The notes beneath the pieces are model-generated. The model ran no database searches. It was not told the DNA's origin and worked only from the letters and a program-made list of their open reading frames with translations. From Spirochaetia bacterium (lineage in GTDB: Bacteria > Spirochaetota > Spirochaetia > CADAEX01), in NCBI GenBank assembly GCA_017649605.1, contig JAGCGL010000060.1, positions 15,459 to 79,458 of the forward strand: DNA of 64,000 nt. The letters are read 5' to 3'. The position numbers and the translations under genes were made by a program. The stretch's first letter is position 1. Every line of letters begins with the position of its first letter. Of this stretch, positions 1,961-51,402 are shown piece after piece.

Positions 1961-3907
1961 ATGTTAGTATACGAAGGTATTAAATCAAGCTTTATTAATG
2001 ATGTAGATGATGGGATTATTGCTGATAAAATATTAACTCGATTTAAAGAATCTTTCCACAGAAGTACTGGTGAATCAGAAATTAATTCTTGGCGAGAATC
2101 CATGCTGAGAATGAGAGTAATATTAGCTGATACTGGGATTCCAGAAAATTCTGGAGTTGCTGTTGAATTCAACATTCCTCATACTTCAAATAGAATCGAC
2201 TTTCTTTTATCTGGATATGATAATAATAAAAATAATTCAATTATTATAATAGAATTAAAACAGTGGGCTCATGCTAATGCGGTAGAAGGAAAAGATGGCA
2301 TTGTCTCCACAATTATAGGAAAATCATTAAGAGAAGTAACGCACCCATCATATCAAGCATGGAGTTATGCAAGTTTAATAAACAATTATAATCAAGAAGT
2401 CTATGATAGGAATGTAGGATTACATCCATGTGCTTTTTTACATAATTATAATTTGACTGATGATGACCCTATTAATGGAGAACAATATAAAGATTATATA
2501 AATGCAGCACCTATGTTTGGGGCAAAAGATTTTGAAAAATTAAGAGCATTTATAAAAAGATTTGTTACCAAAGGCGATGAAAAAAAAGGATTATATATCA
2601 TAGAGAAAGGTAAAATTAAACCTTCAAAAATGCTGCAAGAGTCATTTTCATCAGTATTAAAAGGCAAAAAAGAATTTGTTTTAATTGATGATCAGAAAGT
2701 TATTTTTGAAGAAGCTTTAAAGATAGGAACTGCATCTTGTTATCATAAAAATAAAAGTGTATTAGTCGTAGAAGGCGGGCCTGGCACGGGTAAATCCGTA
2801 TTAGCAATCAATTTATTAAAACAATTCCTAAATAAAAGCTTAAACAGCTTCTATGTAACCAAAAACAGTGCACCAAAAGCTGTTTTTAAAGCAAAACTAA
2901 AAATAGATAAAATGAGTGGATTGAACAATCTATTCAAAGGATCAGGTTGTTTTTATGATTCCAAATCTAATTCCTTTGATGTTTTAATTGTTGATGAAGC
3001 ACATCGATTAAATGCAAAATCAGGGATTTTTCACAATATAGGGGAAAATCAAATTAAAGAAATAATCAATTCGTCTTTTTTTTCAATCTTCTTTGTTGAT
3101 GAAAACCAACGAGTAACGTTAAAAGATATTGGTTCTCTTAAGGAAATAGAAGATTTTGCTAATTTCTATAAAGCTACAATTTATAAAACAAAATTAAAAA
3201 GTCAGTTCAGATGCAATGGTTCAGATGGTTATTTAGCGTGGCTTGATAATATACTCGAAATAAGAGAAACAGCAAATTATGATTTAGATGGCAAATATGA
3301 TTTTAAAGTATTTGATAGTCCTAATGAATTAAGGGAAGAAATAATTAAGAAGAATATTGCCAGCAATAAATCAAGATTAGTGGCTGGCTATTGTTGGAAT
3401 TGGATAACTGATGGGAAAAATGATACAAATGTTCATGATATTACTATTCCTGAGTACAATTTCGAAATAAGTTGGAATCTTGGCAATTCTACGACTTGGG
3501 CAATTGATCCTCTATCTGTAAATGAGGCCGGATGTATTCACACATGCCAAGGGCTAGAATTTGATTATGTTGGAGTTATTATAGGTCAAGACTTACAATA
3601 TAAAAATGGGCATATAGTAACAGATTATACAAAAAGAGCAAAAACCGACAAATCACTAGATGGAATTAAAAAGATTGCCAAAGAAAAAGGAAAAGAAACA
3701 GCATATAAAATTGCTGATACTATTATAAAAAACACCTACAGAACATTAATGACTCGCGGTATGAAAGGATGTTATGTTTATATTTGCGATGAAGGTTTAA
3801 GGGAATATATAAAAGAAGCTGTTAGAAAAATGGAGCCTTTTGAATATCCCAAAACTACTGCTACATATGCAGCTGTAGCAGAAAACAGTCCTAAATATTT
3901 AGAGTAA
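1961..3907 (+). CDS. DUF2075-type ATP-binding protein: N-terminal PD-(D/E)XK-like nuclease motif plus SF1 helicase-like ATPase
   Basis: 648 aa. Motifs seen are RIDFLL...IIIELKQW (D...ExK), Walker A GGPGTGKS, Walker B LIVDEAHRL, FFVDENQRV, and the C-terminal CQGLEFDYVGVIIG. The gene starts 8 nt after the MazG stop and is visibly AT-rich. Confidence 0.75.
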   Translation: MLVYEGIKSSFINDVDDGIIADKILTRFKESFHRSTGESEINSWRESMLRMRVILADTGIPENSGVAVEFNIPHTSNRIDFLLSGYDNNKNNSIIIIELKQWAHANAVEGKDGIVSTIIGKSLREVTHPSYQAWSYASLINNYNQEVYDRNVGLHPCAFLHNYNLTDDDPINGEQYKDYINAAPMFGAKDFEKLRAFIKRFVTKGDEKKGLYIIEKGKIKPSKMLQESFSSVLKGKKEFVLIDDQKVIFEEALKIGTASCYHKNKSVLVVEGGPGTGKSVLAINLLKQFLNKSLNSFYVTKNSAPKAVFKAKLKIDKMSGLNNLFKGSGCFYDSKSNSFDVLIVDEAHRLNAKSGIFHNIGENQIKEIINSSFFSIFFVDENQRVTLKDIGSLKEIEDFANFYKATIYKTKLKSQFRCNGSDGYLAWLDNILEIRETANYDLDGKYDFKVFDSPNELREEIIKKNIASNKSRLVAGYCWNWITDGKNDTNVHDITIPEYNFEISWNLGNSTTWAIDPLSVNEAGCIHTCQGLEFDYVGVIIGQDLQYKNGHIVTDYTKRAKTDKSLDGIKKIAKEKGKETAYKIADTIIKNTYRTLMTRGMKGCYVYICDEGLREYIKEAVRKMEPFEYPKTTATYAAVAENSPKYLE

Positions 3908-3914
3908 AACCACT

Positions 3915-4008
3915 ACAAAATGTCCACCTGTCAACATTTTGTATATGTAAAAATGTCCATGTATCAACATTTTGTGGTATACAAAATGTCCGCCAATCAA
4001 CATTTTGT
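3915..4008. repeat. three tandem 28-bp palindromic sites with a 33-bp period
   Basis: ACAAAATGTCCACCTGTCAACATTTTGT (3915-3942), TAAAAATGTCCATGTATCAACATTTTGT (3948-3975) and ACAAAATGTCCGCCAATCAACATTTTGT (3981-4008). The outer arms AAAATGT/ACATTTT are inverted. Confidence 0.85.
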
Positions 4009-4058: not shown

Positions 4059-4988
4059 ATGATCATCAATACTGGCCAGCGTACCGATATCCCAGCCTTC
4101 TACTCACAATGGTTTGCAAACCGTCTTAAGGCCGGGTTTGTGCTGGTACGTAATCCATACAATCCCAAGAGTGTGATCCGCTATCGGCTTGCTCCTGATG
4201 TCGTTGACCTAATCGGGTTCTGCACCAAGAACCCGGCCCCGATGCTGCCCTATATGCCGCTTCTTGAGCCTTTCAGCCAGTACTGGTATGTCACTATCAC
4301 ACCGTATGGCAAGGATATCGAGCCTAACGTTCCAGACAAGCTTGTGTTGCTAAAGAGCTTTAAGCAGCTGTCCAAGACTGTGGGTGCTGACAGGATGGGA
4401 TGGCGCTACGACCCTATATTTATCAGTTCTGAATGGCCTATAGAACGGCATATTAAGGCCTTTGAATATATGACACGGACTCTGGAAGGTTATACCCATA
4501 CTGCAGTCATCAGCTTTATAGATCTGTACGAGAAGACCAAAAAGAAATTCCCTTCTGTGCAGAGCGTGCCTCGCGAAGAACGCTTGCGCCTAGGCAAAGC
4601 TTTTGTAGAGATTGCCGCAAAATACGGTATGACAGTGCGTCCTTGTGCTGAGGGAACAGAGCTTGCCCAGTTCGGTGCGGACTGCAGAGGCTGCATGACT
4701 GTATCAATGTACGAGAAAGCTCTTGGCCGCCCCCTTGCGGTTCCCCGTTTTGCACCGGCCAGAAAGGAGTGCGCCTGCTACCTAGGCTGCGATATCGGAG
4801 CATACAATACATGTGGCCATCTGTGTAAGTACTGTTATGCCAATTATGATGCTGCCACAGTACGGCACAACATGAAGCTGCACGACCCAGAGTCGCCGCT
4901 TTTAATCGGTCATCTGCTGCCGGATGATGAGGTGCATGATGCTGTTCAGGAAAGCTGGATAGATCCTAATCCAGTGCTGGGGCTGTAG
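4059..4988 (+). CDS. DUF1848 domain protein
   Basis: 309 aa. The N-terminus MIINTGQRTDIPAFYSQWFANRLKAGFVLVRNPYNP and a C-terminal Cys cluster (CACYLGCD...CGHLCKYCYA) fit DUF1848. Confidence 0.7.
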   Translation: MIINTGQRTDIPAFYSQWFANRLKAGFVLVRNPYNPKSVIRYRLAPDVVDLIGFCTKNPAPMLPYMPLLEPFSQYWYVTITPYGKDIEPNVPDKLVLLKSFKQLSKTVGADRMGWRYDPIFISSEWPIERHIKAFEYMTRTLEGYTHTAVISFIDLYEKTKKKFPSVQSVPREERLRLGKAFVEIAAKYGMTVRPCAEGTELAQFGADCRGCMTVSMYEKALGRPLAVPRFAPARKECACYLGCDIGAYNTCGHLCKYCYANYDAATVRHNMKLHDPESPLLIGHLLPDDEVHDAVQESWIDPNPVLGL

Positions 4989-40419: not shown

Positions 40420-41493
40420 TCACAGCAGGCTGATCAGGAAAGAGCGGCAATAGTCAACCAGCTGCCGTCTCCTGCCCCAAGCCCGGCGGAAGTTGGTGGG
40501 GTCGATAAGCCTTATATGCCTGGTTATATTGTTCTCCTGGAACCGCCAGCCATGGTATTCGGCCAGCTCGTGCCAGAACACCTCGCCCCCGACAGTAGGT
40601 AGGTCGATGTTGAAATACCCCTGTATCTCCTTAAGTTGCTCAGGATGTTCAGAAATCACTTCCAATGTTTTCTGAAGGATTGCCTCATCAGCCATGGCAT
40701 TTATCTTCTTGGCCTTTAGACCGCTCAGACTGAAGCTCATATATCCACGCAATGTCCTTAAAAGAGGGGCAAACCGCTTCCTGCAGTCATCATAACCCTT
40801 CTTCATCCGCCGATGCGCGCCAGAGGCTGAGAAGTCCAGAATGCCGAACCAGTTGTCACCCAGATTGACAGTAGGATGGATAACCACTGTGTTGATGCCG
40901 AGCCCGGAATAATCCACATGATAGCTCCGCTTAAGATTCACCACTATGGCATCGGTACAGCCCTCATCCAGAAGAGGCTTTATAGGAACTTCATCACCCC
41001 AGCCTCCATCAATATAATTGTTGCCGAAAATCTTCTCCCCCTGAAACACAAGGGGAATGGCGCTGGTGGCGCACAAAAGCTGCTTCACAGTCTCTTCATC
41101 ATAATTGTTCAGGCAGAAACTTTCAGCCTTTTTAGTATCGGTATTGAGGCATGTGGCATACAGTTTTTTCTTAAGGCCAGGAAGCTTGCCGAAATCCAGC
41201 TGATTCATGATCTTATAAAGGCCTTCCCTGCTGAAGATAGCACCAGAGCGCTTGGTGGTCGATTTGAAATCCAGGATATTGTCCTCAAGCTGAGTTGTCC
41301 AAATATTTACAGCCGTGTCGAAATCACAGAGGCTCAGCAGTATGGCATTAAGCGCCCCCACCGAAGAGCCTGAGATAACTGATATTTTCTTTGTAAGGCC
41401 TATCTCTGTCAGATACTTCCAGACACCCAGCTCATAGCTGCCTTTGCCTCCACCACCCGCCAGTACCAGCCCTATTTTACGCTTGAAGAACAT
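40420..41493 (-). CDS. patatin-like phospholipase with an unknown C-terminal domain, paralog 1 (host-like G+C)
   Basis: 357 aa. Motifs seen are AGGGGKGSYELG, GSSVG (GxSxG) and DGGWGD. The C-terminal 150 aa are unassigned. Confidence 0.8.
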   Translation of the reverse strand: MFFKRKIGLVLAGGGGKGSYELGVWKYLTEIGLTKKISVISGSSVGALNAILLSLCDFDTAVNIWTTQLEDNILDFKSTTKRSGAIFSREGLYKIMNQLDFGKLPGLKKKLYATCLNTDTKKAESFCLNNYDEETVKQLLCATSAIPLVFQGEKIFGNNYIDGGWGDEVPIKPLLDEGCTDAIVVNLKRSYHVDYSGLGINTVVIHPTVNLGDNWFGILDFSASGAHRRMKKGYDDCRKRFAPLLRTLRGYMSFSLSGLKAKKINAMADEAILQKTLEVISEHPEQLKEIQGYFNIDLPTVGGEVFWHELAEYHGWRFQENNITRHIRLIDPTNFRRAWGRRRQLVDYCRSFLISLL

Positions 41494-41661: not shown

Positions 41662-42525
41662 ATGCCACATAAATTTTTTATTCCAAAGGACAAGAATCTG
41701 CTTGATCCTAAAAAGGACAGTATCTTTAAGACACTGTTCACAAAGAGCAGCCAGGGAACGAAGAATGCACTTAAGAGCCTGGTCAAGGCAATCGTGGGCT
41801 ACGAGCCCAAGGATGTAGAGGTCATCAACAATGAGCTGACAAAGGATATAACCTGTGCCAAGGACATAAGACTCGACCTCCAGTGCAAGATGGAGGACGG
41901 AAGCAGGGTCAATGTGGAGATACAGACCTGCCCCAGCAATGACAACCTGAAGGCCCGCACCCTCTATTACGGCTGCAGGATGCTCTCCGATTTTGATATG
42001 AAGGGTAAGAAATATCGCATTCTCCCCAAGGTATATCAGGTCATGTTCACCGACTTCCACCTGTTCAAGGAAAGCGATAGCTACATCCGGACCTTCACTA
42101 TGAAGAGCGAGGAGACAGTGCTGGCCGACAACCTCAGGATCATCTTTATCCAGATGCCGTTGTTCAAGGAAGAAGACAAAGATGAGGAAAACTTGCAAGA
42201 TATAGAAAAGTGGGTTATATTTTTAAGAGACAGCACGAACAAAAAGAAAAGAGACCTCTTGAACAGCATAATCAATACGGACGAGGGGATAAAAGAGGCG
42301 GGAGAGATACTGATGTATATAAGCGATGATGAGAGAGAACGGGCAATACAGGAAAGCCACTACAAGGCCGAAGTGGACAGGCAGGCAGAACTCCTGGCAA
42401 CTCATGACCAGGGCGTTGAGGAAGGCCTGGAAACCGCAGCCCGTGGCATGAAAGCCAAGAATATTCCTGTTGAAACTATTATTGAGATTACAGGCCTGAC
42501 CGCCGAGCAGGTGGCAGCGCTGTAA
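41662..42525 (+). CDS. Rpn/YhgA-like PD-(D/E)XK recombination-promoting nuclease (putative transposase family)
   Basis: 287 aa. Motifs seen are DSIFKTLF, DIRLDLQCKMEDGSRVNVEIQ (D...ExQ/K core) and a C-terminal helical repeat. SD AAAGGAGG lies upstream. Confidence 0.75.
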   Translation: MPHKFFIPKDKNLLDPKKDSIFKTLFTKSSQGTKNALKSLVKAIVGYEPKDVEVINNELTKDITCAKDIRLDLQCKMEDGSRVNVEIQTCPSNDNLKARTLYYGCRMLSDFDMKGKKYRILPKVYQVMFTDFHLFKESDSYIRTFTMKSEETVLADNLRIIFIQMPLFKEEDKDEENLQDIEKWVIFLRDSTNKKKRDLLNSIINTDEGIKEAGEILMYISDDERERAIQESHYKAEVDRQAELLATHDQGVEEGLETAARGMKAKNIPVETIIEITGLTAEQVAAL

Positions 42526-42619: not shown

Positions 42620-43690
42620 TTATAACTGTCCAAACAGAATAGAACGGCAGAAATCAATCATCTGCTGTCTGGATCCACGGGCCAAACGGAGATCAGTGGG
42701 ATCCAGAAGACGTACATATGACATAAATTTATGCTCTTGGAAACGCCAGCCTCTGTATTCTGCTAAATCGTCCCAGAAAAAATTACCCCCCGCAGTAATA
42801 AAAGGAATATTGAACATACCTTGAATCTCTTCTAATAGCTCAGGATCTTCTACAATTTTTTTAAGGGCTTTTTGCAGAACAGTCTCATCATCCATCTTGT
42901 TAATTCTTTTAGCCTTAAGGTCTTCAATGCTAAATCCGCCACGTAACGTCTTAAAAATTGGAGCAAAAGTTACTTTACTGTCGAGATAACCAAGTTCAAG
43001 TCTTTTTTCAACATATTCAGAAGAAAAATCCAGCATGTCAAAGAATCCATCACCTAGACTTGTCGAAGGATGAATTACTATTGTATTTATCCCATAATTC
43101 GAATAATCCACATGATAACTTCTATTCAGATTCACAATGATAGCATCAGTACATTTCTCATATAAGAGGGGATCAATAGGAACATTATCACCCACGCCAC
43201 CATCAATATAGTAATTACCATCTATTAACTCGCCTCGGAATATAACTGGAATTGCACTAGTAGCGCATAATAACTTCTTTATCGTTTTGATATCACAGTC
43301 ATTGAGACAAAAACTTTCGGTTCGAAGTCCATTAACATTATAACAGGTCACATATATTTTCTTTTTTAATGTGGTAATGTCATCTAAATTTACATATTCA
43401 TCAATAATTTTAAGAAGGCCGGAACGACTGAACAATGCCCATTCTTTCTTCTTCAGAGATTTTACATCAAGGATATTCCCTTCAAGTCGTGTAGTCCAAA
43501 TCCACTCTGCAGTTTCATAATCGCACAAGCTCAGCAGAACAGCATTTAGTCCACCTACCGAAGTACCTGAAATAACTGAGATTTTTTTGGTTAAACCTAT
43601 CTCTTTCAGGTACTTCCAGACACCCAGCTCGTAGCTGCCCTTTCCGCCACCCCCAGCAAAAACAAGACCTATTTTTCGTTTAAAAACCAT
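42620..43690 (-). CDS. patatin-like phospholipase with an unknown C-terminal domain, paralog 2 (AT-rich)
   Basis: 356 aa and collinear with paralog 1 over the full length. Motifs seen are AGGGGKGSYELG, GTSVG and DGGVGD. One hand-counted line gives about 28% G+C. Confidence 0.8.
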   Translation of the reverse strand: MVFKRKIGLVFAGGGGKGSYELGVWKYLKEIGLTKKISVISGTSVGGLNAVLLSLCDYETAEWIWTTRLEGNILDVKSLKKKEWALFSRSGLLKIIDEYVNLDDITTLKKKIYVTCYNVNGLRTESFCLNDCDIKTIKKLLCATSAIPVIFRGELIDGNYYIDGGVGDNVPIDPLLYEKCTDAIIVNLNRSYHVDYSNYGINTIVIHPSTSLGDGFFDMLDFSSEYVEKRLELGYLDSKVTFAPIFKTLRGGFSIEDLKAKRINKMDDETVLQKALKKIVEDPELLEEIQGMFNIPFITAGGNFFWDDLAEYRGWRFQEHKFMSYVRLLDPTDLRLARGSRQQMIDFCRSILFGQL

Positions 43691-43748: not shown

Positions 43749-44111
43749 TCATGCACATTCCCGCTCAAACTGATGCGCCACTGACCAGCCAGCAGCCTCA
43801 ATCATAGCAATGCTGATAGCCGGTGCCACAATCTGACCAAGTCCAGGCACAAGCTTTGACAACTCCTTTGCCATCACCTTCATAGGCTGCTTCAAGGTTG
43901 TCCGCTTGATTGCCGCAATCGCAATCCCTTCAGCCACAGACTCGGTGACACTGCCTCCAAAGACCCCTGCCAGAGCCATTGTCATGGTAGTCATAGCAAC
44001 AAGGTCTGCTGCCACCCCAAGCCCAGGAACAGGGATGGCGTTTCCTGCCCCACAAGCAACTGCGTGTCCGTGGATAATCCCATGGCACATATTCATCTGT
44101 TCTTCAGTCAT
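43749..44111 (-). CDS. DUF697-like Gly/Ala-rich protein
   Basis: 120 aa. The pattern NAIPVPGLGVAADLVAMTTMTMALAGVFGG...LVPGLGQIVAPAISIAMIEAAGWSVAHQF matches the DUF697 consensus as I remember it. SD AAGGAG lies upstream. Confidence 0.55.
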   Translation of the reverse strand: MTEEQMNMCHGIIHGHAVACGAGNAIPVPGLGVAADLVAMTTMTMALAGVFGGSVTESVAEGIAIAAIKRTTLKQPMKVMAKELSKLVPGLGQIVAPAISIAMIEAAGWSVAHQFERECA

Positions 44112-44112
44112 A

Positions 44113-44301
44113 TCAATTCTCCTTTCTTAATTCGAGTTCTACACGGCTTAAGCCATGTCTGTTTTTCATTGTTCCTATCCGGTAGTCCCAGATTCTTTTC
44201 CAACCAAAGTTTCTACGCGAGTACAAAAACTTAATCGAAGTGAAGTACCTGCTTCCAATCATCTCAATTTCATTTTTGTTAAAACTTTTTAATCTAATCA
44301 T
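44113..44301 (-). CDS. hypothetical basic 62-aa protein, first gene of the orf62/DUF697-like unit
   Basis: A canonical promoter with leaderless geometry lies directly upstream. Its last codons carry the SD of the next gene. I recognise no family. Confidence 0.5.
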   Translation of the reverse strand: MIRLKSFNKNEIEMIGSRYFTSIKFLYSRRNFGWKRIWDYRIGTMKNRHGLSRVELELRKEN

Positions 44302-44336: not shown

Positions 44337-44415
44337 GCGATTTTTTAGAATTTTTTATAAAGTTTTTGTTGCACTCAAGAAAAAATAAGTGTATATTATA
44401 AAAAAGGAAAGAATT

Positions 44416-44874
44416 ATGAAACCAAATAGCAACCTTGAAAAAGAAGTTTCCATAATGCAAGACCATTTACAAGAACTTAGAAAATTGGCAGGTTGGTCAG
44501 TGGACGAACTCAGCCAAAAAATGGGCTTAACTAGGCAGGCGGTTTACGCCCTGGAGAACGGCCAAGCCAAGATGAACCAACTTCATTATCTGGCATTAAT
44601 TCATTTATTCTCAATTGAATGTGATTACCACAAAGAAAACAAAGCCCTTGCAGCTGTCTTAAATCTTCTGTTCAACGATACTGATAATTACATTGCCAAG
44701 AAAGAAGAATATGACCAAAAAATTTTCGGAATAGCATCGATGGGAGCTGTAACAACCAGTACCACTGCCATTGTCCTTGGCGCATTACTCGGGCCACTTG
44801 GCCTTATAGGCGCCAGTGCAGTCGGCCTTTCATCTGCGTTATCTACAAAACTACTGGGGCTCGGCAAGAAATAA
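44416..44874 (+). CDS. XRE-family HTH regulator with a C-terminal glycine-zipper/hydrophobic tail
   Basis: The HTH reads LRKLAGWSVDELSQKMGLTRQAVYALENGQ. The tail reads GAVTTSTTAIVLGALLGPLGLIGASAVGLSSALSTKLLGLGKK. The start was moved to ATG 44416 (SD AAGGAAAG). Confidence 0.7.
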   Translation: MKPNSNLEKEVSIMQDHLQELRKLAGWSVDELSQKMGLTRQAVYALENGQAKMNQLHYLALIHLFSIECDYHKENKALAAVLNLLFNDTDNYIAKKEEYDQKIFGIASMGAVTTSTTAIVLGALLGPLGLIGASAVGLSSALSTKLLGLGKK

Positions 44875-45255
44875 CAATCAGACGCACTTAAGCGTCTCAA
44901 TGCTATCCTCCTCTTTATCACCACAAATCACCATAATCGCAATAATCATAGTAGCAACGGAAAATCATCTCTATACTGCCCCTGGGGGCAACCATAAAAA
45001 TCATCCCAATAACTACAATCCTGACAATGGCAGTAGTAGCTTGCCTTACAGTTGTCATCATCTTCAGTTTTTCATAGTACTATAATTCAATAGAAGAGTA
45101 GAATTTCTGTTACAAGAAATAAGATATCTAAAACAATTCAAGTTCCTTCATAACGAACTTTATATAAGGTATTTCTTCTTTGAAAAGGCAAATAGAAAAT
45201 AGATAATATAAAAATAAAGTTTTATACAGATGTCATTAATTCAGATATTAGACTT

Positions 45256-47706
45256 TTAATTCATCAATAAATCATACATTAATTCCGCAGTCAAATCTAT
45301 AGGAGTTTTATGACCATCTAATAAATCTTTATATAAATCATTCTTTCCTTTTTGTAATTGTTGTACTTTCTCTTCAATAGAATCCTCAACAATCATCTTG
45401 TATATCATTACATTTTTTTTCTGACCAATCCGATATATTCTATCTTCTGCTTGTTTTTCAATTGCTGGATTCCACCATGGATCATATATTATAGCCGTAT
45501 CGGCAGAAACAAGATTCAACCCTGTACCTCCTGCTTTTAAACTGATAAGGAACACCCCATTCTTACTAGCCTCAAATTCATTCACGAGATCCATTCGATT
45601 GTTTGTTTTACCATCCAAATAAAAGCAATTATAATGTCGTCGAATAATACATTTCTCTATAATTTTAAGCATTTTGGTAAATCGGCTAAAAATAACAACT
45701 TTATGCCCTGATACATATAAGCTTTCTAAAATTTCTAAGAGTAAATCAAATTTAGCAGACTCTCTGCAACCGGTTGGGTTCAGTTCTTTATCAAGAAGCT
45801 GTGGATGACAGCATATTTCCTGCAGATACAACAACCCATTCAACATAATGCTATTAGTTTTTATTTCAAATCTATCGTTTTTTCTATTTATTTCATGCCG
45901 AATACTAAATAACATGTTGTCATATAATTCTTTTTGGCATGTATCCATCTTACAATATAATATCTGTTTTTGCTTTTTGGGGAGATCTTTAAGAACATCT
46001 TCCTTCATCCTCCGGAGAAGAAATGGTGAGGTAATTCGCTTGATCTTCTCAATTCTATGCTGATTATTAGTATCTTTCAAAATAAAACTTACTTTGCTCA
46101 AAATATTGGGATTAATAAGCTGCATAAGCCCCAAGTATTCCATAATATTATTTTCAACTGGAGTTCCAGTAAGAATAATTCTTGTCTTTGCCTTGATTTT
46201 CTTTATTGCTCTATATATTTTTGTTTTTGAATTTTTTATGTTCTGTGCTTCATCAATTATAAGATTTTCAAATTCAATTTTTATAAGTTTTCCAATATCA
46301 TTTAAAATTGTTCCATATGTTGTGATTATTACTTTATGTTTCTGAATGTCACTCTCATTTCTTCCAATTCCATGATAAATAAAGAAATCAGTATTCGGAG
46401 AAAATTTTAAAAATTCCTTTTCCCAGTTGGCTAATAGAGTTTTGGGTACAATAATAATACTTTTTGTATCTTTCATACTACTATCAGATAGATATGCTAT
46501 TATCTGCAAGGTCTTCCCTAAACCCATATCATCTGCAAGGCATCCGCCAAATCCATTCTTACGAAGAGAAAGCAACCACCTTACACCATTTTTTTGATAT
46601 CCTCGTAATATTTTTATCAACTTATCATCAATAACCATTGAAACAGCATCATAATCAACCAATCTATCAAGATCCTTTATAATACCATTGCCACATTCTT
46701 GAGCTATTTCTATCGCATCAACTAGTTTATTTTTATTTATACGAAGTGTATTCCCTAATCTATCACCTGTTTTTAATGCAGAGCCTAAAGCCTCTGGAAC
46801 AATTATCATTTTTCCATTGAATTCCAACCAAGTATCTCTCTTTAGCCGAAAATTGACTAAATCAGCTATATTTACCTTTTCATCTTCAAGTTCAATATCT
46901 CCTTTTATATCAAACCAATCTATCCCATATGAAATATGAATATTAGAAAAATCGCTTTTAACAATTTGAGTTTTCTTATCAATAAAAACACTAATCCCCT
47001 CGGAAACCAAGTTTGCAATATCTCTATTAAAGTTTTTTCCGCTGTAAATAAATCCCGTCCCCCGAACATAACTCCAATTATGCTTCTTAATAATTATGAC
47101 GACACTCTCTTCAAATCCATAATCACGATAATTGGAATCCAACTGTCGCTCTTTATCCTCATAATTAACGCTAATGTCATCATAGTCAAATACTAATTCT
47201 AATGGATGTTCTTTCATATTGATATTTACATATGCTTTAGCTATAATCTGTCTAGCAGTATCAATTACATCAGTTTCTTTTATAAGTAAAAACAAATTCG
47301 TCTTATCATATGCAATCTTAACTTTTCCAATCTGTAAATAGTCAAGACCCGAATGTTCTTTATAATAAACGTTATTCACTTGGAACATTGGTGTGGTTTT
47401 ATCATGGTAAAAAAGGCAGCCCATTTGGGCAAATTGAATTAATTTATACAAATTGGAATCAGAAATTATATGTTGATATTTATTAATTTGGACATTGATT
47501 GGAGAAAACAAGAATTCTTTTATTGAATTAAACTCATAGGGAGAAAGATTATCCACTTGATTTATTCCATAAATATTAGCATTCCGTAGCAAACCAGAAA
47601 ACTGTTGCTTCTTTAGGTGCGGAATTGTTCCTTCATAAGTTTCAAGAACAATTTTCCCTTTTTTTTTGCTTTCTGATATGTTAATATTTAGTATCAAATC
47701 TGCCAT
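45256..47706 (-). CDS. SNF2-family helicase/ATPase with an N-terminal extension of about 370 aa
   Basis: 816 aa. Motifs seen are LADDMGLGKTLQ, DEAQNIKN, TGTPVEN, SLKAGGTGLNL and DPWWNPAIEKQAEDRIYRIGQ. G+C is very low. Confidence 0.85.
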   Translation of the reverse strand: MADLILNINISESKKKGKIVLETYEGTIPHLKKQQFSGLLRNANIYGINQVDNLSPYEFNSIKEFLFSPINVQINKYQHIISDSNLYKLIQFAQMGCLFYHDKTTPMFQVNNVYYKEHSGLDYLQIGKVKIAYDKTNLFLLIKETDVIDTARQIIAKAYVNINMKEHPLELVFDYDDISVNYEDKERQLDSNYRDYGFEESVVIIIKKHNWSYVRGTGFIYSGKNFNRDIANLVSEGISVFIDKKTQIVKSDFSNIHISYGIDWFDIKGDIELEDEKVNIADLVNFRLKRDTWLEFNGKMIIVPEALGSALKTGDRLGNTLRINKNKLVDAIEIAQECGNGIIKDLDRLVDYDAVSMVIDDKLIKILRGYQKNGVRWLLSLRKNGFGGCLADDMGLGKTLQIIAYLSDSSMKDTKSIIIVPKTLLANWEKEFLKFSPNTDFFIYHGIGRNESDIQKHKVIITTYGTILNDIGKLIKIEFENLIIDEAQNIKNSKTKIYRAIKKIKAKTRIILTGTPVENNIMEYLGLMQLINPNILSKVSFILKDTNNQHRIEKIKRITSPFLLRRMKEDVLKDLPKKQKQILYCKMDTCQKELYDNMLFSIRHEINRKNDRFEIKTNSIMLNGLLYLQEICCHPQLLDKELNPTGCRESAKFDLLLEILESLYVSGHKVVIFSRFTKMLKIIEKCIIRRHYNCFYLDGKTNNRMDLVNEFEASKNGVFLISLKAGGTGLNLVSADTAIIYDPWWNPAIEKQAEDRIYRIGQKKNVMIYKMIVEDSIEEKVQQLQKGKNDLYKDLLDGHKTPIDLTAELMYDLLMN

Positions 47707-47773
47707 AATATATCTTCACCTAACAATTTTGAAAAAAAATAATATGCAACGCCAGCATAAATCCAATCATCTT

Positions 47774-49111
47774 TTATTCATAAAAAAAATCATTACATTT
47801 TATCATTTTATCATATATTACTTCTTTTTTATCACATATGTAGTGCCATTCCCCCCGATGAATACCAACGTCTTTAATTCCTTCATATTCTAATCGGCAA
47901 CCACCACCACAAATATAACGAATTTCACAATTCTTGCATTCTGCTGTATTATCTACAGAAGTATCCATCATTATTTTATCTGATTCTGCAAACAATTCTT
48001 TAAAGTTTGTATTAAGTATATTAATTCTGCTGACCAATTCATGTATTCTATTACACCAAAAGACCTGCCCATCTGCCGAAATACTAATTCCCCCGAAGCC
48101 ACAGTTTTTTCTTAAAAAGTGATTCTCATAATTTAAAACAAAAGTCTCAGTATAATAATTGGGATATAGTCTTTCTACAAGATTTCTTAAGATTTGCTTA
48201 TAGTTTTTATTTTCTTCCTTTGTCATACAAACTTCCCTTCCAGGAATAAGTTCTAAATTGAACTTAATAAATACTTGAGGATACTTTTTAATTAATTTTC
48301 TTGCAAAAGGTTCAAAATTATCAACAAATTCAGTTAAATTATCATACAATGGAGTAACAGCAACAGATACTTTTGTTCCAAGTGCACTAAAATCTTTCAC
48401 ACATTGAATTGCCTTGTCAAATCCATCATATTGCCTTACTTTATAGTAAGATTCCTTGTCGTAGCCATCTATACTAATTTGTATTTCGTCTATATAACTT
48501 CCCAATTCTTGGATTTTCTTTTCATCCCATAATACCCCGTTACTAAGGACAGTAACTACAAGTCCTATCTCGTGAGCATGTTTAATAACTTTCTCAAACC
48601 CCTTATATACCGTCACTTCGCCACCAGTAAACGAAACACCATGTCCACCGTTTTCCTTAAAATCATTAAGTACTTTCATCCATTGCTCACATGGTAATTC
48701 ATTCACAATGATGTCTCCTGCAAACATATAGCAATGCTTACAATGTTGATTGCAATTATTTGTTAGGTATATGTATATGTCCCTAACTTTATTATCTTTG
48801 CATATAGGATTCTCAAATTTTTTTGCCTCAATTTGGGTTATAACATTAATAACAGCTTCCTCTTTCCCTATTTTCAAAGTTTCTTCTACAGTATATCCTT
48901 CGGTAAGTAATTGAAAAGCCCTGAATTCTTCATAGTCCTTAAGGACTAGCCAAGAGATACCCTCTGAGTTAATTATTAGATAAAAACCCTTATACTTGCA
49001 TGTCACAAGCCCTTTAGGGAAGTGATATACCTTATTTATTTCTATTTCAGTTTCTCGGTCATTTTCTTCATAGCCGAGATTTTTCTTCTTGTTTTTCATC
49101 ATATAGACCAT
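47774..49111 (-). CDS. radical SAM/SPASM-domain peptide maturase with an N-terminal PqqD/RRE-like domain
   Basis: 445 aa. It has CNQHCKHCY (CX3CX2C) and C-terminal SPASM cysteines (CGFGG...WC and CKNCEIRYICGGGC). The N-terminal 100 aa (WLVLKDYEEFRAFQLLTEGYTVEETL) look like an RRE. Confidence 0.75.
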   Translation of the reverse strand: MVYMMKNKKKNLGYEENDRETEIEINKVYHFPKGLVTCKYKGFYLIINSEGISWLVLKDYEEFRAFQLLTEGYTVEETLKIGKEEAVINVITQIEAKKFENPICKDNKVRDIYIYLTNNCNQHCKHCYMFAGDIIVNELPCEQWMKVLNDFKENGGHGVSFTGGEVTVYKGFEKVIKHAHEIGLVVTVLSNGVLWDEKKIQELGSYIDEIQISIDGYDKESYYKVRQYDGFDKAIQCVKDFSALGTKVSVAVTPLYDNLTEFVDNFEPFARKLIKKYPQVFIKFNLELIPGREVCMTKEENKNYKQILRNLVERLYPNYYTETFVLNYENHFLRKNCGFGGISISADGQVFWCNRIHELVSRINILNTNFKELFAESDKIMMDTSVDNTAECKNCEIRYICGGGCRLEYEGIKDVGIHRGEWHYICDKKEVIYDKMIKCNDFFYE

Positions 49112-49129
49112 TTATACATCGATAACTAA

Positions 49130-49161
49130 AGAAAAGCGTGACAATAATGCCACGCTTTTCT
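49130..49161 (-). terminator. 11-bp hairpin (attenuator candidate) between the precursor ORF and the maturase gene
   Basis: On the minus strand, AGAAAAGCGTG-GCATTATTGT-CACGCTTTTCT is followed by TTAGTTAT. Confidence 0.5.
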
Positions 49162-49189
49162 CAATACGAGTCAAGTTGTCAAATCAAAG

Positions 49190-49291
49190 TTAGTTTTGAT
49201 TTTTATCACAACTTTTGAAGCAGTACATGCTATTAATCCTAGCATCTTTCTTCACTTTCTTGTTCTTCCAAGTGATCTTGATTTTCTTCAT
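49190..49291 (-). CDS. 33-aa candidate RiPP precursor peptide
   Basis: Not in the ORF track. GGAGG lies 9 nt before the ATG at 49291-49289. Hand translation is MKKIKITWKNKKVKKDARINSMYCFKSCDKNQN. It lies 78 nt upstream of the rSAM gene on the same strand. Confidence 0.5.
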   Translation of the reverse strand: MKKIKITWKNKKVKKDARINSMYCFKSCDKNQN

Positions 49292-49383
49292 GGAAGTGTA
49301 CCTCCAAATATAAAAATTTAAAGTTTAGCTATAAAAAACAAACTTGTCGTTTATACTATTTATAATACATTCTTCATAAAAAA

Positions 49384-50340
49384 TCAAATCTCTGATATCA
49401 AATATGACAAATACCTTCGGCACTCCGCGATATCATCCTTATGCATTATAGAATTCGCACTGTGTATATGACTGCATGGAATAGAAATTCCCAATTCCTC
49501 ATAACCATTATCTACTTCATTAGAAATAACAAGTTCGCTTGTACCACAATCGCTTACTTCCATCTGAAATATTATTCCATTGTTAGAAGCAATTTCTATT
49601 GCTCGTCCAACACATGCAGGACTTGATAATCCCATGCTATCTGAAATCTTTATGCCAACTCCATTTGAAAGTTTAAGGCTATTTCTATCTCCAACACACG
49701 ATGCGTCAATAGTAATACATATATCTGGTTGAATTGAAGTATTAAGAACACGGGCTCCTCGCATATTTGTTTCTTCCATAACAGAAAAGCAAAAATATGT
49801 GTCATTTTTCAATGATTTGCATTTTGATATAATATCCCACAAACAAAAACACGATGCCCTATTGTCTAAAGCTTTTCCTATAAAGAACTCTTCCGTTTCT
49901 TGCAATGGAATATCAAAGGTGAAAACATCTCCCGGCGACACTTTATCTAAAGCATAACTATCATTTATCTCTAAAACAAGATTATCATAATTATAAGGTT
50001 TCATTTGTAATGGATCTTTAGCATATATTACTCCTTTTAATCCATTATCAGAAATAACCCTTTGCTGATGTGCATTCCAAGTTTTAATATTCCCTAAACT
50101 CTTCAAAGAGTATTGCCCTTTGGAAATTTCCGCAATAATCTGAAACCCCACTTCATCTACATGAGCTCGAGCCAATATCTTTTTTTTGCTATCTTCTCCC
50201 TTAATAAAAAACACTAAATTTCCCACACTATCAATGTGTATTTTACCATAGTCCAAAGTTTCTAGCTTTTGATAAAGAAAGTTTATTAATTGTTTCTCAT
50301 AACCTGAAACAGCAATCATATTACATAATGCTTCAAGCAA
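49384..50340 (-). CDS. M42 family aminopeptidase (FrvX/glutamyl aminopeptidase-like)
   Basis: 318 aa. Motifs VSGYEKQLINFL and AHVDEVGFQI are present. The start is TTG with a GGGGA SD-like element upstream, and the gene is AT-rich. Confidence 0.7.
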   Translation of the reverse strand: MLEALCNMIAVSGYEKQLINFLYQKLETLDYGKIHIDSVGNLVFFIKGEDSKKKILARAHVDEVGFQIIAEISKGQYSLKSLGNIKTWNAHQQRVISDNGLKGVIYAKDPLQMKPYNYDNLVLEINDSYALDKVSPGDVFTFDIPLQETEEFFIGKALDNRASCFCLWDIISKCKSLKNDTYFCFSVMEETNMRGARVLNTSIQPDICITIDASCVGDRNSLKLSNGVGIKISDSMGLSSPACVGRAIEIASNNGIIFQMEVSDCGTSELVISNEVDNGYEELGISIPCSHIHSANSIMHKDDIAECRRYLSYLISEI

Positions 50341-50451
50341 ATCTTTCCCCGCCCTTTATAAATGAATAATAATCTAATAATAGCTTAATTATATTATTTA
50401 TATTATTTTATGTTAATCACTCATTTTGTTCAAGGCTAATACATTTTTTCA

Positions 50452-50526: not shown

Positions 50527-51402
50527 TTACAGTCCCAGCTTGGCCATTGCTGCATCCATCTGAGCCTTGACAGCATCAGAGGTCTCGCACAGCGGCAGGC
50601 GGTAAGCTTCCTGGATCATGCCGGCCTTAGCCATTGCATATTTGATTGGAACTGGGTTTGTGTCGGCAAACTCTGCTCTGAAGAATGGGAGCAGCTTGTA
50701 GTGGAGTGCCTTAGCCTCTTCCAGCTTGCCAGCCAGTGTTGCGTTGCACAGTGCATTCATCTCCTTTGGAATAAGGTTGGATGCTACAGATACAATTCCC
50801 TTTCCGCCCATGGCGATAAGGAGGAATCCCAGGTTGTCGTCGCCAGAAAGAACTGTGAATGTGTCTGGCTTTGCAGCGATAAGGTTCATCATCTGGTTTA
50901 CGTCGCCGCTTGCTTCCTTTACAGCCTGAATATTAGGGTGCTTAGCCAGGCGGAGCATTGTTGCGTTGTCTATATTCTTTCCTGTCCGTCCAGGAATGTT
51001 GTATACAACCATTGGGATGTCAACTGCATCTGCGATAGTCATGAAGTGGCGGTAGAAGCCCTCCATGCTCGGCTTGTTATAGTATGGTGCAACCTGCAGT
51101 GTTGCGTCTACTCCAAAGCTTGCTGCAACCTTGGACATGTGCAGAGCCTCGGCTGTGCTGTTGGAGCCTGCCCCTGCGATAATCTGGCAGCGGCCTGCAG
51201 CCTGTCTTGCAACAAACTCGATGATCTTAAGGTGATCCTCGTGGATGATTGTCGGGCTTTCGCCTGTTGTGCCCATAGGTGCGATTCCGGCAACGCCAGA
51301 CTCCACCTGGAAATCTACAAGGGCCTTGAGTGCGCCCCAGTCGATCGATTCGTCCTTATTGAATGGTGTGATAAGGGCGGTATAAATTCCTTCAAACTTC
51401 AT
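50527..51402 (-). CDS. dapA: 4-hydroxy-tetrahydrodipicolinate synthase
   Basis: 291 aa. Motifs GIYTALITPF and GTTGESPT are present, with the catalytic Lys region. Confidence 0.9.
   Translation of the reverse strand: MKFEGIYTALITPFNKDESIDWGALKALVDFQVESGVAGIAPMGTTGESPTIIHEDHLKIIEFVARQAAGRCQIIAGAGSNSTAEALHMSKVAASFGVDATLQVAPYYNKPSMEGFYRHFMTIADAVDIPMVVYNIPGRTGKNIDNATMLRLAKHPNIQAVKEASGDVNQMMNLIAAKPDTFTVLSGDDNLGFLLIAMGGKGIVSVASNLIPKEMNALCNATLAGKLEEAKALHYKLLPFFRAEFADTNPVPIKYAMAKAGMIQEAYRLPLCETSDAVKAQMDAAMAKLGL

Follow-up and report, generated by a model that had tools for sequence, protein, structure and literature searches.

A short cysteine-containing peptide, its predicted radical SAM maturase and an SNF2-family ATPase recur together in a widespread bacterial gene cassette

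Peptides that are made on the ribosome and modified after translation (RiPPs) have been studied almost wholly as secreted antibiotics or cofactor precursors, and bacterial SNF2 proteins, which are abundant, are poorly understood beyond a few defence systems and RapA. This study describes a gene cassette in which the two are combined. It is located on the minus strand at positions 45256-50340 of a 64,000-nucleotide stretch from a Spirochaetia bacterium (GenBank assembly GCA_017649605.1, contig JAGCGL010000060.1, positions 15,459 to 79,458; this whole stretch is referred to here as the window) and encodes an M42-family metallopeptidase, a 33-aa peptide, a radical S-adenosylmethionine (rSAM) enzyme and an SNF2-family ATPase. 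Among described systems, it resembles the SkfA/SkfB, StsA/StsB, CteA/CteB and PapA/PapB clusters in its short precursor with a leader and a C-terminal cysteine core, and sactipeptide and ranthipeptide clusters generally in its maturase, with a predicted RiPP recognition element (RRE), a Cx3Cx2C core and a seven-cysteine SPASM region, and in the hairpin that follows the precursor gene. It differs from those clusters in that genes for a transporter or for immunity are missing, the peptide core is invariant across phyla, curated family cutoffs are not reached, an M42 exopeptidase replaces the usual endoprotease, and the SNF2 partner is obligate.

SNF2 motors are also known from the defence systems Zorya (ZorD), Dpd (DpdE) and DISARM (DrmD), with which the cassette shares strong PADLOC matches (to DpdE and ZorD) and a mobile or defence-island context. 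Unlike in Zorya, however, ZorA, ZorB and ZorC are absent from the window and related loci and the SNF2 protein lacks the nuclease domain of ZorD; likewise, DrmA, DrmB, DrmC and the methylase of DISARM, and DpdA, DpdB, DpdC and the deazaguanine synthesis genes of Dpd, are absent from cassette neighbourhoods. The partners here are instead a peptide and its maturase. Modules of rSAM-SPASM enzymes, peptides and metallopeptidases have been predicted in conflict systems of the VMAP and FtsH ternary types (Kaur, Burroughs, Iyer & Aravind, eLife 2020, PMC7159879). The cassette is like these in joining an rSAM-SPASM enzyme, a small conserved peptide and a metallopeptidase for a predicted role in intracellular conflict rather than in a secreted-antibiotic cluster, and unlike them in its ATPase (SNF2 versus vWA-MoxR, AP-ATPase or FtsH), its peptide motifs, its peptidase family and its hosts, which are gut anaerobes instead of multicellular bacteria. 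With the PqqA/PqqE/PqqD, MftA/MftB/MftC/MftE and QhpC/QhpD systems it has in common a dedicated peptidase, a strongly conserved core and an rSAM-modified peptide that, presumably here as well, stays inside the cell (PqqE and the mycofactocin maturase are among the sequence matches of the rSAM enzyme); it differs from them in that a cofactor-using redox enzyme is lacking, the partner is a DNA translocase and the distribution is mobile and patchy. No description or curated model of a RiPP rSAM enzyme combined with an SNF2 protein was found in full-text literature, NCBIfam and PADLOC, which agrees with a preliminary description of the locus, where this combination was said not to be known to its author from described RiPP or defence systems.

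The three-to-four-gene system is robust and widespread and has apparently not been described before. Conservatively, it can be classed as a module for RiPP maturation that was recruited to an SNF2 motor, and the likelihood is considerable that it is a new kind of DNA-motor system under the control of a peptide. The reading preferred here, with a probability of about 45%, is that an intracellular cross-linked peptide and the SNF2 translocase form a mobile conflict or defence system.

Peptide, rSAM-SPASM enzyme and SNF2 protein are the core of a widespread gene family in which the M42 peptidase is a frequent fourth gene. In species-representative genomes, all intact loci with an rSAM homologue of at least 36% identity (14 of 14) contain the peptide, the rSAM gene and both halves of the SNF2 gene together, and in genome, metagenome and assembly look-ups the peptide and SNF2 genes were present beside every homologue at or above this identity. 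When the search was started from the SNF2 N-terminus, the rSAM gene was found directly upstream in 46 of 47 metagenome loci, the 47th being a contig without upstream DNA. Co-occurrence is strict both ways, over more than 60 loci from several bacterial families and two phyla, with hosts that include Lachnospiraceae, Oribacterium, Lachnospira, Ruminococcus, Megasphaera, Succiniclasticum, Erysipelotrichaceae, Paenibacillaceae and other Clostridia. Two of the carriers, Oribacterium sp. C9 and Lachnospiraceae bacterium C1.1, are in culture.

The set also stays together when its order changes, e.g., as peptide-rSAM-M42-SNF2 in locus L015 and as rSAM-SNF2-x-M42 in locus L081, where x is an unknown 386-aa gene. 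In a sister clade (L080-L084), an rSAM gene is again located upstream of an SNF2 gene, the product of which is 898-912 aa long and shares residues ~140-360 with the window protein while its N-terminus is different; peptides encoded where the upstream DNA is readable are MKNITLTWKVVAKDNTSRVGAMYCFKSCEKNQN (L080) and MTKKIKLKWKTKKLQDKSRIGVEYCFKTCGVNAN (L082), and the L082-L084 cassettes adjoin a gene for a DUF8173 membrane protein. A divergent triad version with an rSAM enzyme of 32% identity is carried by the Treponema saccharophilum chromid pTS1 (L085; NZ_AP025289.1, 62536-75870), in the order FRG-domain protein, rSAM, SNF2 (39% identical, with an ORF start 3 nt past the rSAM stop, annotated in the record as a shorter 692-aa protein) and class I SAM methyltransferase. 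After the methyltransferase gene follow two unannotated precursor ORFs, MVLTWNVAENELQNIKCFGCFNCCCVMANMGGGGPGSASENDNG and ...LTLTWNVELIPEKVYTAASGGCYYTFKNCNECEKTVHKNS, with the same L-T-W-N-V leader motif and Cys-rich cores. The recurrence of a small Cys-containing ORF and an SNF2 gene beside rSAM homologues, on which the preliminary description had made its proposal depend, was hence observed at 36% identity and above, from both search directions, in sister clades and in the 32% version. An alternative would be that an ordinary RiPP cluster and an unrelated SNF2 helicase are adjacent by chance in an AT-rich island, as the 67-nt gap between the two genes in the window and the lack of a described functional link might suggest. 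This was refuted by the neighbourhood analysis, with co-occurrence in more than 60 loci that withstands rearranged gene order and extends to sister clades and the 32%-identical version, and its probability is negligible.

In Bacteroidales (Prevotella, Porphyromonadaceae; L019, L021, L022 and L023), rSAM relatives of ~33% identity have precursor genes upstream, in which a leader M-x-I-x-Y-x-V is joined to C-[FY]-x-x-C cores that vary (for example MNINYEVESEYEEISAFCYASCCVNYLTNSNGNSYD; two copies in L021), and L022 contains an M42 gene right after the rSAM gene, while an SNF2 gene was found in none of these four loci. They look like an SNF2-free sister RiPP family; as the module occurs there without SNF2, the peptide/rSAM(/M42) module seems to be the older one, of which a large branch is defined by its link to SNF2. 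Upstream of the Prevotella rSAM gene of L022, overlapping ORFs at 3270-3990 with a period of ~347 nt suggest a tandem DNA repeat. Decayed cassette copies, either frameshifted or fragmentary, were also encountered (L017/L041, L024 and L072-L078); in L024, a Spirochaetales metagenome-assembled genome (MAG), the peptide is kept beside decayed rSAM and M42 remnants and the SNF2 gene is lost. Part of these copies may be due to errors in long-read MAG assemblies (BNJ* contigs).

The precursor peptide gene (49190-49291, minus strand) encodes MKKIKITWKNKKVKKDARINSMYCFKSCDKNQN, in which a leader of approximately residues 1-21 is followed by the conserved core M-Y-C-F-K-x-C-x-x-N-Q-N, and is preceded by a GGAGG Shine-Dalgarno sequence (49301-49305, minus strand) 9 nt ahead of the ATG. 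The ORF, this ribosome-binding site and the CX3C C-terminus had been pointed out in the preliminary description and are borne out by 37 distinct intact gene sequences, which encode 32 distinct peptides of 33 residues (33-34 with the sister clades). Their consensus is M-K-x-h-x-h-x-W-K-x-K-K-x-K-x-S-x-R-h-x-x-M-Y-C-F-K-x-C-x-x-N-Q-N, with W8, K11, R18, M22, C24, F25, K26, C28, N31 and Q32 invariant; a 33-aa ORF with both cysteines is present in all intact loci, and GGAGG or AGGAGG is located upstream in nearly all of them (AAGGAG in L018). For the invariant residues, the gene sequences switch between synonymous codons (TGC/TGT, TTC/TTT, AAA/AAG, AAT/AAC, CAA/CAG), which indicates purifying selection acting on the protein. 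Judged by its length, its strong Shine-Dalgarno sequence and the codon pattern in 37 gene sequences, the ORF is a real gene, far beyond chance, and none of the Pfam, NCBIfam and PADLOC v2 models matches it. The Lys-rich leader that was noted at first holds for the window peptide but not as a general trait: the leader of L018 (MEKIVLSWEVKSIEDASRVAAMYCFKSCSANQN) is not Lys-rich with the same core, so that Lys richness is not essential. A role of the Lys-rich leader as a DNA-binding element was rejected, since the leaders of L018 and L080 are neutral or acidic and the core is the same. The core is unchanged across families and phyla.

The rSAM gene (47774-49111, minus strand) is 445 codons long as an ORF and probably encodes 442 aa from position 49102. 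Its product matches PF04055 (Pfam, E = 1.5e-21), and both the C119x3C123x2C126 motif and seven C-terminal cysteines (C336, C352, C391, C394, C400, C404 and C425) are kept in 18 of 18 aligned homologues. These seven cysteines and a full-length structural alignment to CteB and SuiB identify the SPASM region, for which the Pfam SPASM model gives no match in the window protein and a weak one in one sister-clade homologue. In an AlphaFold2 model (mean pLDDT 81; block means 86-97 across the N-terminal domain), residues 34-95 form a beta-beta-beta-alpha-alpha-alpha arrangement (strands 34-39, 42-47 and 52-56; helices 59-69, 74-80 and 83-95), so the modelled N-terminal domain has RRE topology; the Pfam PqqD model does not match the window protein. 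CteB was the best whole-chain Foldseek match (1.5e-15), followed by SkfB and SuiB, all of which bear an RRE, and the top PDB sequence match was SkfB (2e-27). NCBIfam bit scores were far below the curated cutoffs for the top match StsB (109.6 vs 625) and for SkfB (81 vs 300) and AlbA (51 vs 850), and the cutoff of no named subfamily (StsB, SkfB, AlbA, ScmE, WgkB, PqqE) was reached. PADLOC v2 gave generic radical-SAM matches only (pVip, PDC-S02), and neither NCBIfam release 20 nor PADLOC v2 has models for this rSAM or M42 subfamily.

Alignment, AlphaFold2 and Foldseek thus agree with the preliminary description on the Cx3Cx2C motif, the SPASM cysteines and the RRE-like N-terminus, and StsB, SkfB, CteB and SuiB as best matches support the sactipeptide/ranthipeptide-type layout that was proposed there. 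Placement in a non-peptide family, against which the proposal was to be checked, was not found, the best NCBIfam, PDB and structure matches being peptide maturases. Assignment as a sulfatase-maturase-type (anSME) or viperin-type enzyme was rejected, as both are lower-ranked generic matches without an RRE and the peptide is conserved. On sequence and modelled structure, the enzyme is assigned as a RiPP peptide maturase, which by analogy would form a Cys thioether in the peptide. An anaerobic lifestyle was noted for all hosts identified, which fits an oxygen-sensitive maturase.

The nature of these matches bears on a different explanation, namely that the product is an antimicrobial RiPP (a sactipeptide- or ranthipeptide-like bacteriocin), secreted or released by lysis, directed against DNA or a DNA-bound machine such as topoisomerase or RNA polymerase, and that the SNF2 protein provides self-immunity by removing the peptide or the stalled complex from DNA. 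In its matches, the maturase comes nearest to the antimicrobial-peptide enzymes SkfB, StsB and AlbA; a hairpin follows the precursor gene in most loci, as is expected of a bacteriocin-type operon; and the SNF2-less Bacteroidales relatives resemble ordinary variable RiPP clusters, some with two precursors. An immunity role of SNF2 would account for the absence of any other immunity gene, helicase-like resistance proteins are known (HelR, the UvrA-like DrrC), and pairs of bacteriocin and immunity genes are often carried on mobile elements. However, no exporter, C39 peptidase or double-glycine leader was found in the more than 60 cassette loci compared, the core is invariant over a wide phylogenetic distance, unlike that of arms-race peptides, and the SNF2 gene is apparently coupled in translation to the maturase gene rather than separately expressed, which makes this explanation an unlikely one. 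Conserved genes for exporters, protease-transporters or immunity are lacking both within the cassettes and next to them, and just 2 of the 149 ORFs that flank 24 loci match ABC_tran; the absence of transporter and immunity genes, first remarked on for the window, also holds across related cassettes. As there is no conserved exporter, the product may stay inside the cell, and the combination of this with an invariant core, unlike the variable cores of the SNF2-less Bacteroidales, argues for an intracellular, non-bacteriocin use.

The SNF2 protein (816 aa; 45256-47706, minus strand) consists of a family-specific region (residues 1-~135), a divergent SNF2_assoc region (~140-360) and the motor (366-800). 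It matches PF00176 (E = 3e-65) and PF00271 (E = 3e-21), Walker A GLGKT, DEAQ and motif VI QAxDRxxRxGQ do not vary among 33 orthologues, and of the solved motors the Sulfolobus Rad54-like 1z63 is nearest (1.9e-92); by these motifs the motor is intact and apparently active. The N-terminal 362 residues fold confidently (pLDDT 87) and have no significant fold match in PDB or BFVD (best ZorD 8qy7, E = 0.087, and an uncharacterised phage protein, E = 0.008), and a profile search of PDB sequences with this region gave nothing. A word-index protein search with the SNF2 N-terminus alone returned four uninformative fragments and was replaced by full-length and HMMER searches. HMMER, run exhaustively over 1.84 billion representatives, gave just 143 matches to the N-terminal region, which showed that residues ~140-360 are common to ordinary bacterial SNF2 proteins of 1000-1200 aa and that residues 1-~135 are restricted to the peptide-linked family; the Pfam model SNF2_assoc (PF08455) weakly matches 7 of 21 family members. 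Invariant positions near the N-terminus are D3, E12, S13, R41, N71 and Q73. Because residues ~140-360 are a divergent SNF2_assoc domain, the protein is of an ordinary bacterial SNF2 type and not a chromatin remodeller. Of the initial characterization as a full-length, chromatin-remodeller-type SNF2 ATPase, the intact full-length motor therefore stands and the type does not. In residues ~140-360 the protein is like the YwqA-type SNF2 proteins (PF08455 plus SNF2), from which it is distinguished by its unique first ~135 residues, its shorter length of 816 aa and an rSAM gene that is always upstream.

The defence-system models match the protein well in PADLOC (DpdE 3e-119, ZorD 3e-111), where the alignments cover the generic motor, the one to ZorD beginning at residue 259, before the motor. 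In NCBIfam, the scores are far from the cutoffs (ZorD 205 vs 1500, DrmD 74 vs 950 and DpdE 59 vs 500 bits), and the top match is the 'pilus expression-regulating Snf2 family helicase'. That top match, together with the SNF2_assoc mid-region of YwqA-like proteins, would suit a housekeeping or regulatory device, in which the peptide is a cofactor, subunit or allosteric switch for an SNF2 protein that remodels transcription or replication complexes, e.g., under redox or anaerobic conditions, comparable to RapA/YwqA-type SNF2 proteins on the one hand and to the peptide-derived PQQ, mycofactocin and QhpC on the other. The core is as conserved as that of a cofactor precursor, and part of the loci are in housekeeping neighbourhoods. 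Mycofactocin and PQQ layouts have a dedicated peptidase and no exporter, as is the case here. Such a device is nonetheless hard to reconcile with a patchy, horizontally transferred distribution in which most copies are mobile-element cargo beside defence genes, with the existence of pseudogenised copies, and with the lack of a conserved partner oxidoreductase or regulon gene, and it is considered quite improbable.

The first gene of the cassette in the window encodes an M42-family metallo-aminopeptidase of 318 aa with a TTG start (49384-50340, minus strand). It matches PF05343 (E = 1.4e-46) and retains the two-metal ligand motifs when compared to PDB 2fvg (AHVDEVGF, LDNRA, MEETNMRG, IDAS and SHIHS), by which it is apparently an active exopeptidase; its NCBIfam scores stay below the equivalog cutoffs (119 vs 412), and no PADLOC v2 model matches it. 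M42 enzymes are processive exopeptidases of oligopeptides, and a role as leader peptidase, suggested in the preliminary description, would make this enzyme a candidate leader trimmer. Where the upstream sequence is long enough to tell, about three in four loci have the gene. A sub-clade (L011, L017/L041, L042, L062 and L070) lacks it, and in L015 and L081 it has moved to another position, which identifies it as an accessory part.

The four genes are co-directional on the minus strand, in the order M42, peptide, rSAM, SNF2. A promoter-like site, TTAACA-17-TATAAT (50388-50416, minus strand; 11 of 12 consensus matches), is located at the upstream edge of the island, just past the terminator of dapA. 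Directly 3' of the peptide gene is a 15-bp hairpin followed by a U-run (49129-49162, minus strand; -27.3 kcal/mol; z = -4.8), which none of 200 shuffled sequences matched in folding and which is absent from the preliminary description. An equivalent hairpin with a differing stem sequence is present in most of 16 loci and is followed by a U-run in 11; being kept as a structure and not as a sequence, it is a conserved structural feature, and may be an attenuator or leaky terminator that gives an excess of peptide mRNA over enzyme mRNA. The distance between the peptide and rSAM genes is 78 nt, as first described, for the first ATG of the rSAM ORF, and 87 nt if the start of the database copy (P0001, 442 aa, three codons later) is correct. 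Between the rSAM and SNF2 genes, the 67-nt gap, in which no hairpin had been seen, is confirmed to be unstructured (z = +0.89), and a search for terminator-like sites in it found none. In many relatives the rSAM stop and SNF2 start are just 4 nt apart, which suggests that maturase and motor are co-translated. The transcription unit probably ends at a terminator-like hairpin 3' of SNF2 (44880-44897, minus strand), located between the cassette and a convergent HTH_3 gene (44389-44874, plus strand).

G+C content is 0.30-0.33 over 45001-50000 and ~0.41-0.54 in the adjoining 1-kb windows, and the low-G+C island, which extends from 45256 to ~50460, stands in a Spirochaetia host genome of ~50% G+C; computed coordinates and composition uphold the four co-directional genes in an island of ~30% G+C that had been counted by hand. 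Upstream of the island are the housekeeping gene dapA (DHDPS/DapA; 50527-51402), with its terminator-like hairpin at 50485-50463, dapB and a gene for a GHMP kinase. A Spirochaetia MAG from goat rumen (JAFSOR010000007.1) corresponds to the window with 99-100% identity at the protein level. The closest relatives of all four proteins are from Lachnospiraceae and Oribacterium (66-73% identity), and on this ground the island looks transferred from low-G+C Firmicutes. From its sequence, the cassette looks like a horizontally acquired, self-contained operon.

The surroundings of related cassettes are for the most part those of mobile elements and defence genes. In Lachnospiraceae bacterium C1.1, the cassette is on an integrative and conjugative element (ICE), between a relaxase and a restriction-modification system, with an ArdC-like gene and a topoisomerase gene nearby; in another locus it is inside an integrase/VapE/MobA element, and in yet another it is flanked by the gene for a type IV secretion system (T4SS) coupling protein. 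Other neighbours are serine recombinases, Fic/DUF1016, AAA_15/21 and nSTAND3, and a pooled scan of the flanks gave matches to DndB, GmrSD, GajA, AriA, MADS, type II methyltransferases, PDC-S01/S02/M62, HEC-06 and RmrA. Prophage carriage was rejected, as searches of IMG/VR and the phage collection turned up no cassette, and so was plasmid carriage, for which the single distant match was Treponema saccharophilum pTS1, itself the divergent triad. It was also considered whether the cassette serves the mobile element itself in anti-defence, establishment or exclusion, for example if the SNF2 protein displaced host restriction or nucleoid proteins from incoming DNA under regulation by the peptide. 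Several loci are indeed inside ICEs or integrative and mobilizable elements (IMEs), near relaxase, ArdC-like, NikA or T4SS coupling-protein genes, but the window and several other loci have no adjacent transfer genes, and the islands are shared with defence genes instead of known anti-defence genes; the chance that such a service explains the cassette is judged small.

The mobile or defence-island context and the DpdE/ZorD-like motor are the reasons why a conflict or defence role is rated most likely. Several observations weigh against it. The defence association is guilt by association, drawn from gene neighbourhoods without comparison to matched random loci, and some surroundings are of a housekeeping nature, with L082-84 between transketolase and ArgRS genes and L011 beside lysS. 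The PADLOC matches to DpdE and ZorD are, by their alignments, limited to the generic motor, and neither the Pfam scan nor the fold search revealed a recognisable nuclease or other effector domain in the SNF2 protein. Absence from phage collections and a single distant plasmid match indicate that the cassette is not a typical prophage-borne defence. Finally, the M42 gene is dispensable in a sub-clade, so that leader removal is maybe not required, or done by a host peptidase.

In the proposed mechanism of the conflict or defence system, the promoter at ~50.4 kb would drive the operon, and the hairpin after the peptide gene would keep peptide mRNA in excess over enzyme mRNA. The RRE of the maturase would bind the leader via the h-x-h-x-W-K-x-K...R motif, after which one or two cross-links would be installed in M-Y-C-F-K-x-C-x-x-N-Q-N, most likely thioethers from C24 and/or C28. 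The M42 peptidase would then digest the unstructured leader from the N-terminus until stalled by the cross-linked core. The matured peptide may act with the co-translated SNF2 double-stranded DNA translocase as a ligand or regulator, for which the family-specific SNF2 residues 1-135 would be the most plausible docking site, and the two together would be a conflict or defence module carried as cargo of mobile elements. A stricter form of this proposal, in which the rSAM-cross-linked peptide is a dedicated intracellular ligand, switch or subunit that docks on the SNF2 N-terminus and the whole is a new mobile immune or conflict class, is put forward more tentatively.

If the proposal is true, a RiPP would for the first time be seen to control a motor of the chromatin-remodeller type. 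An SNF2-linked module without an exporter points to an intracellular job on a DNA motor, and a small-molecule-like partner would help to learn how one of the bacterial SNF2 proteins is regulated. If a defence function were proven, the architecture would be a new one that is common in Firmicutes of the human gut and the rumen, where defence discovery has sampled too little. For enzymology, both the precursor family (Y-C-F-K-x-C-x-x-N-x-N) and the rSAM subfamily are new, and the cross-link chemistry may be so too; with three to four genes in ~5 kb the system is compact and directly tractable.

Other features of the window were noted around the cassette. Downstream of it the island goes on, with the HTH_3 gene, small ORFs at 44113-44301 (62 aa) and 43749-44111 (120 aa) and a patatin-like phospholipase gene (42620-43690), followed further downstream by a PD-(D/E)XK transposase-like gene (41662-42525, plus strand) and a second patatin paralogue (40420-41493). 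In contig L001 the HTH, small-ORF and patatin genes also accompany the cassette, and as a group they may be a defence-like module of their own. A second AT-rich island (~30% G+C at 2001-4000) contains a gene for a 648-aa helicase of the Schlafen-group-3/DUF2075 type (1961-3907), which is flanked by MazG-like (1611-1952), DUF1810 (1039-1554) and DUF1848 (4059-4988) genes and may be an acquired defence-type gene.

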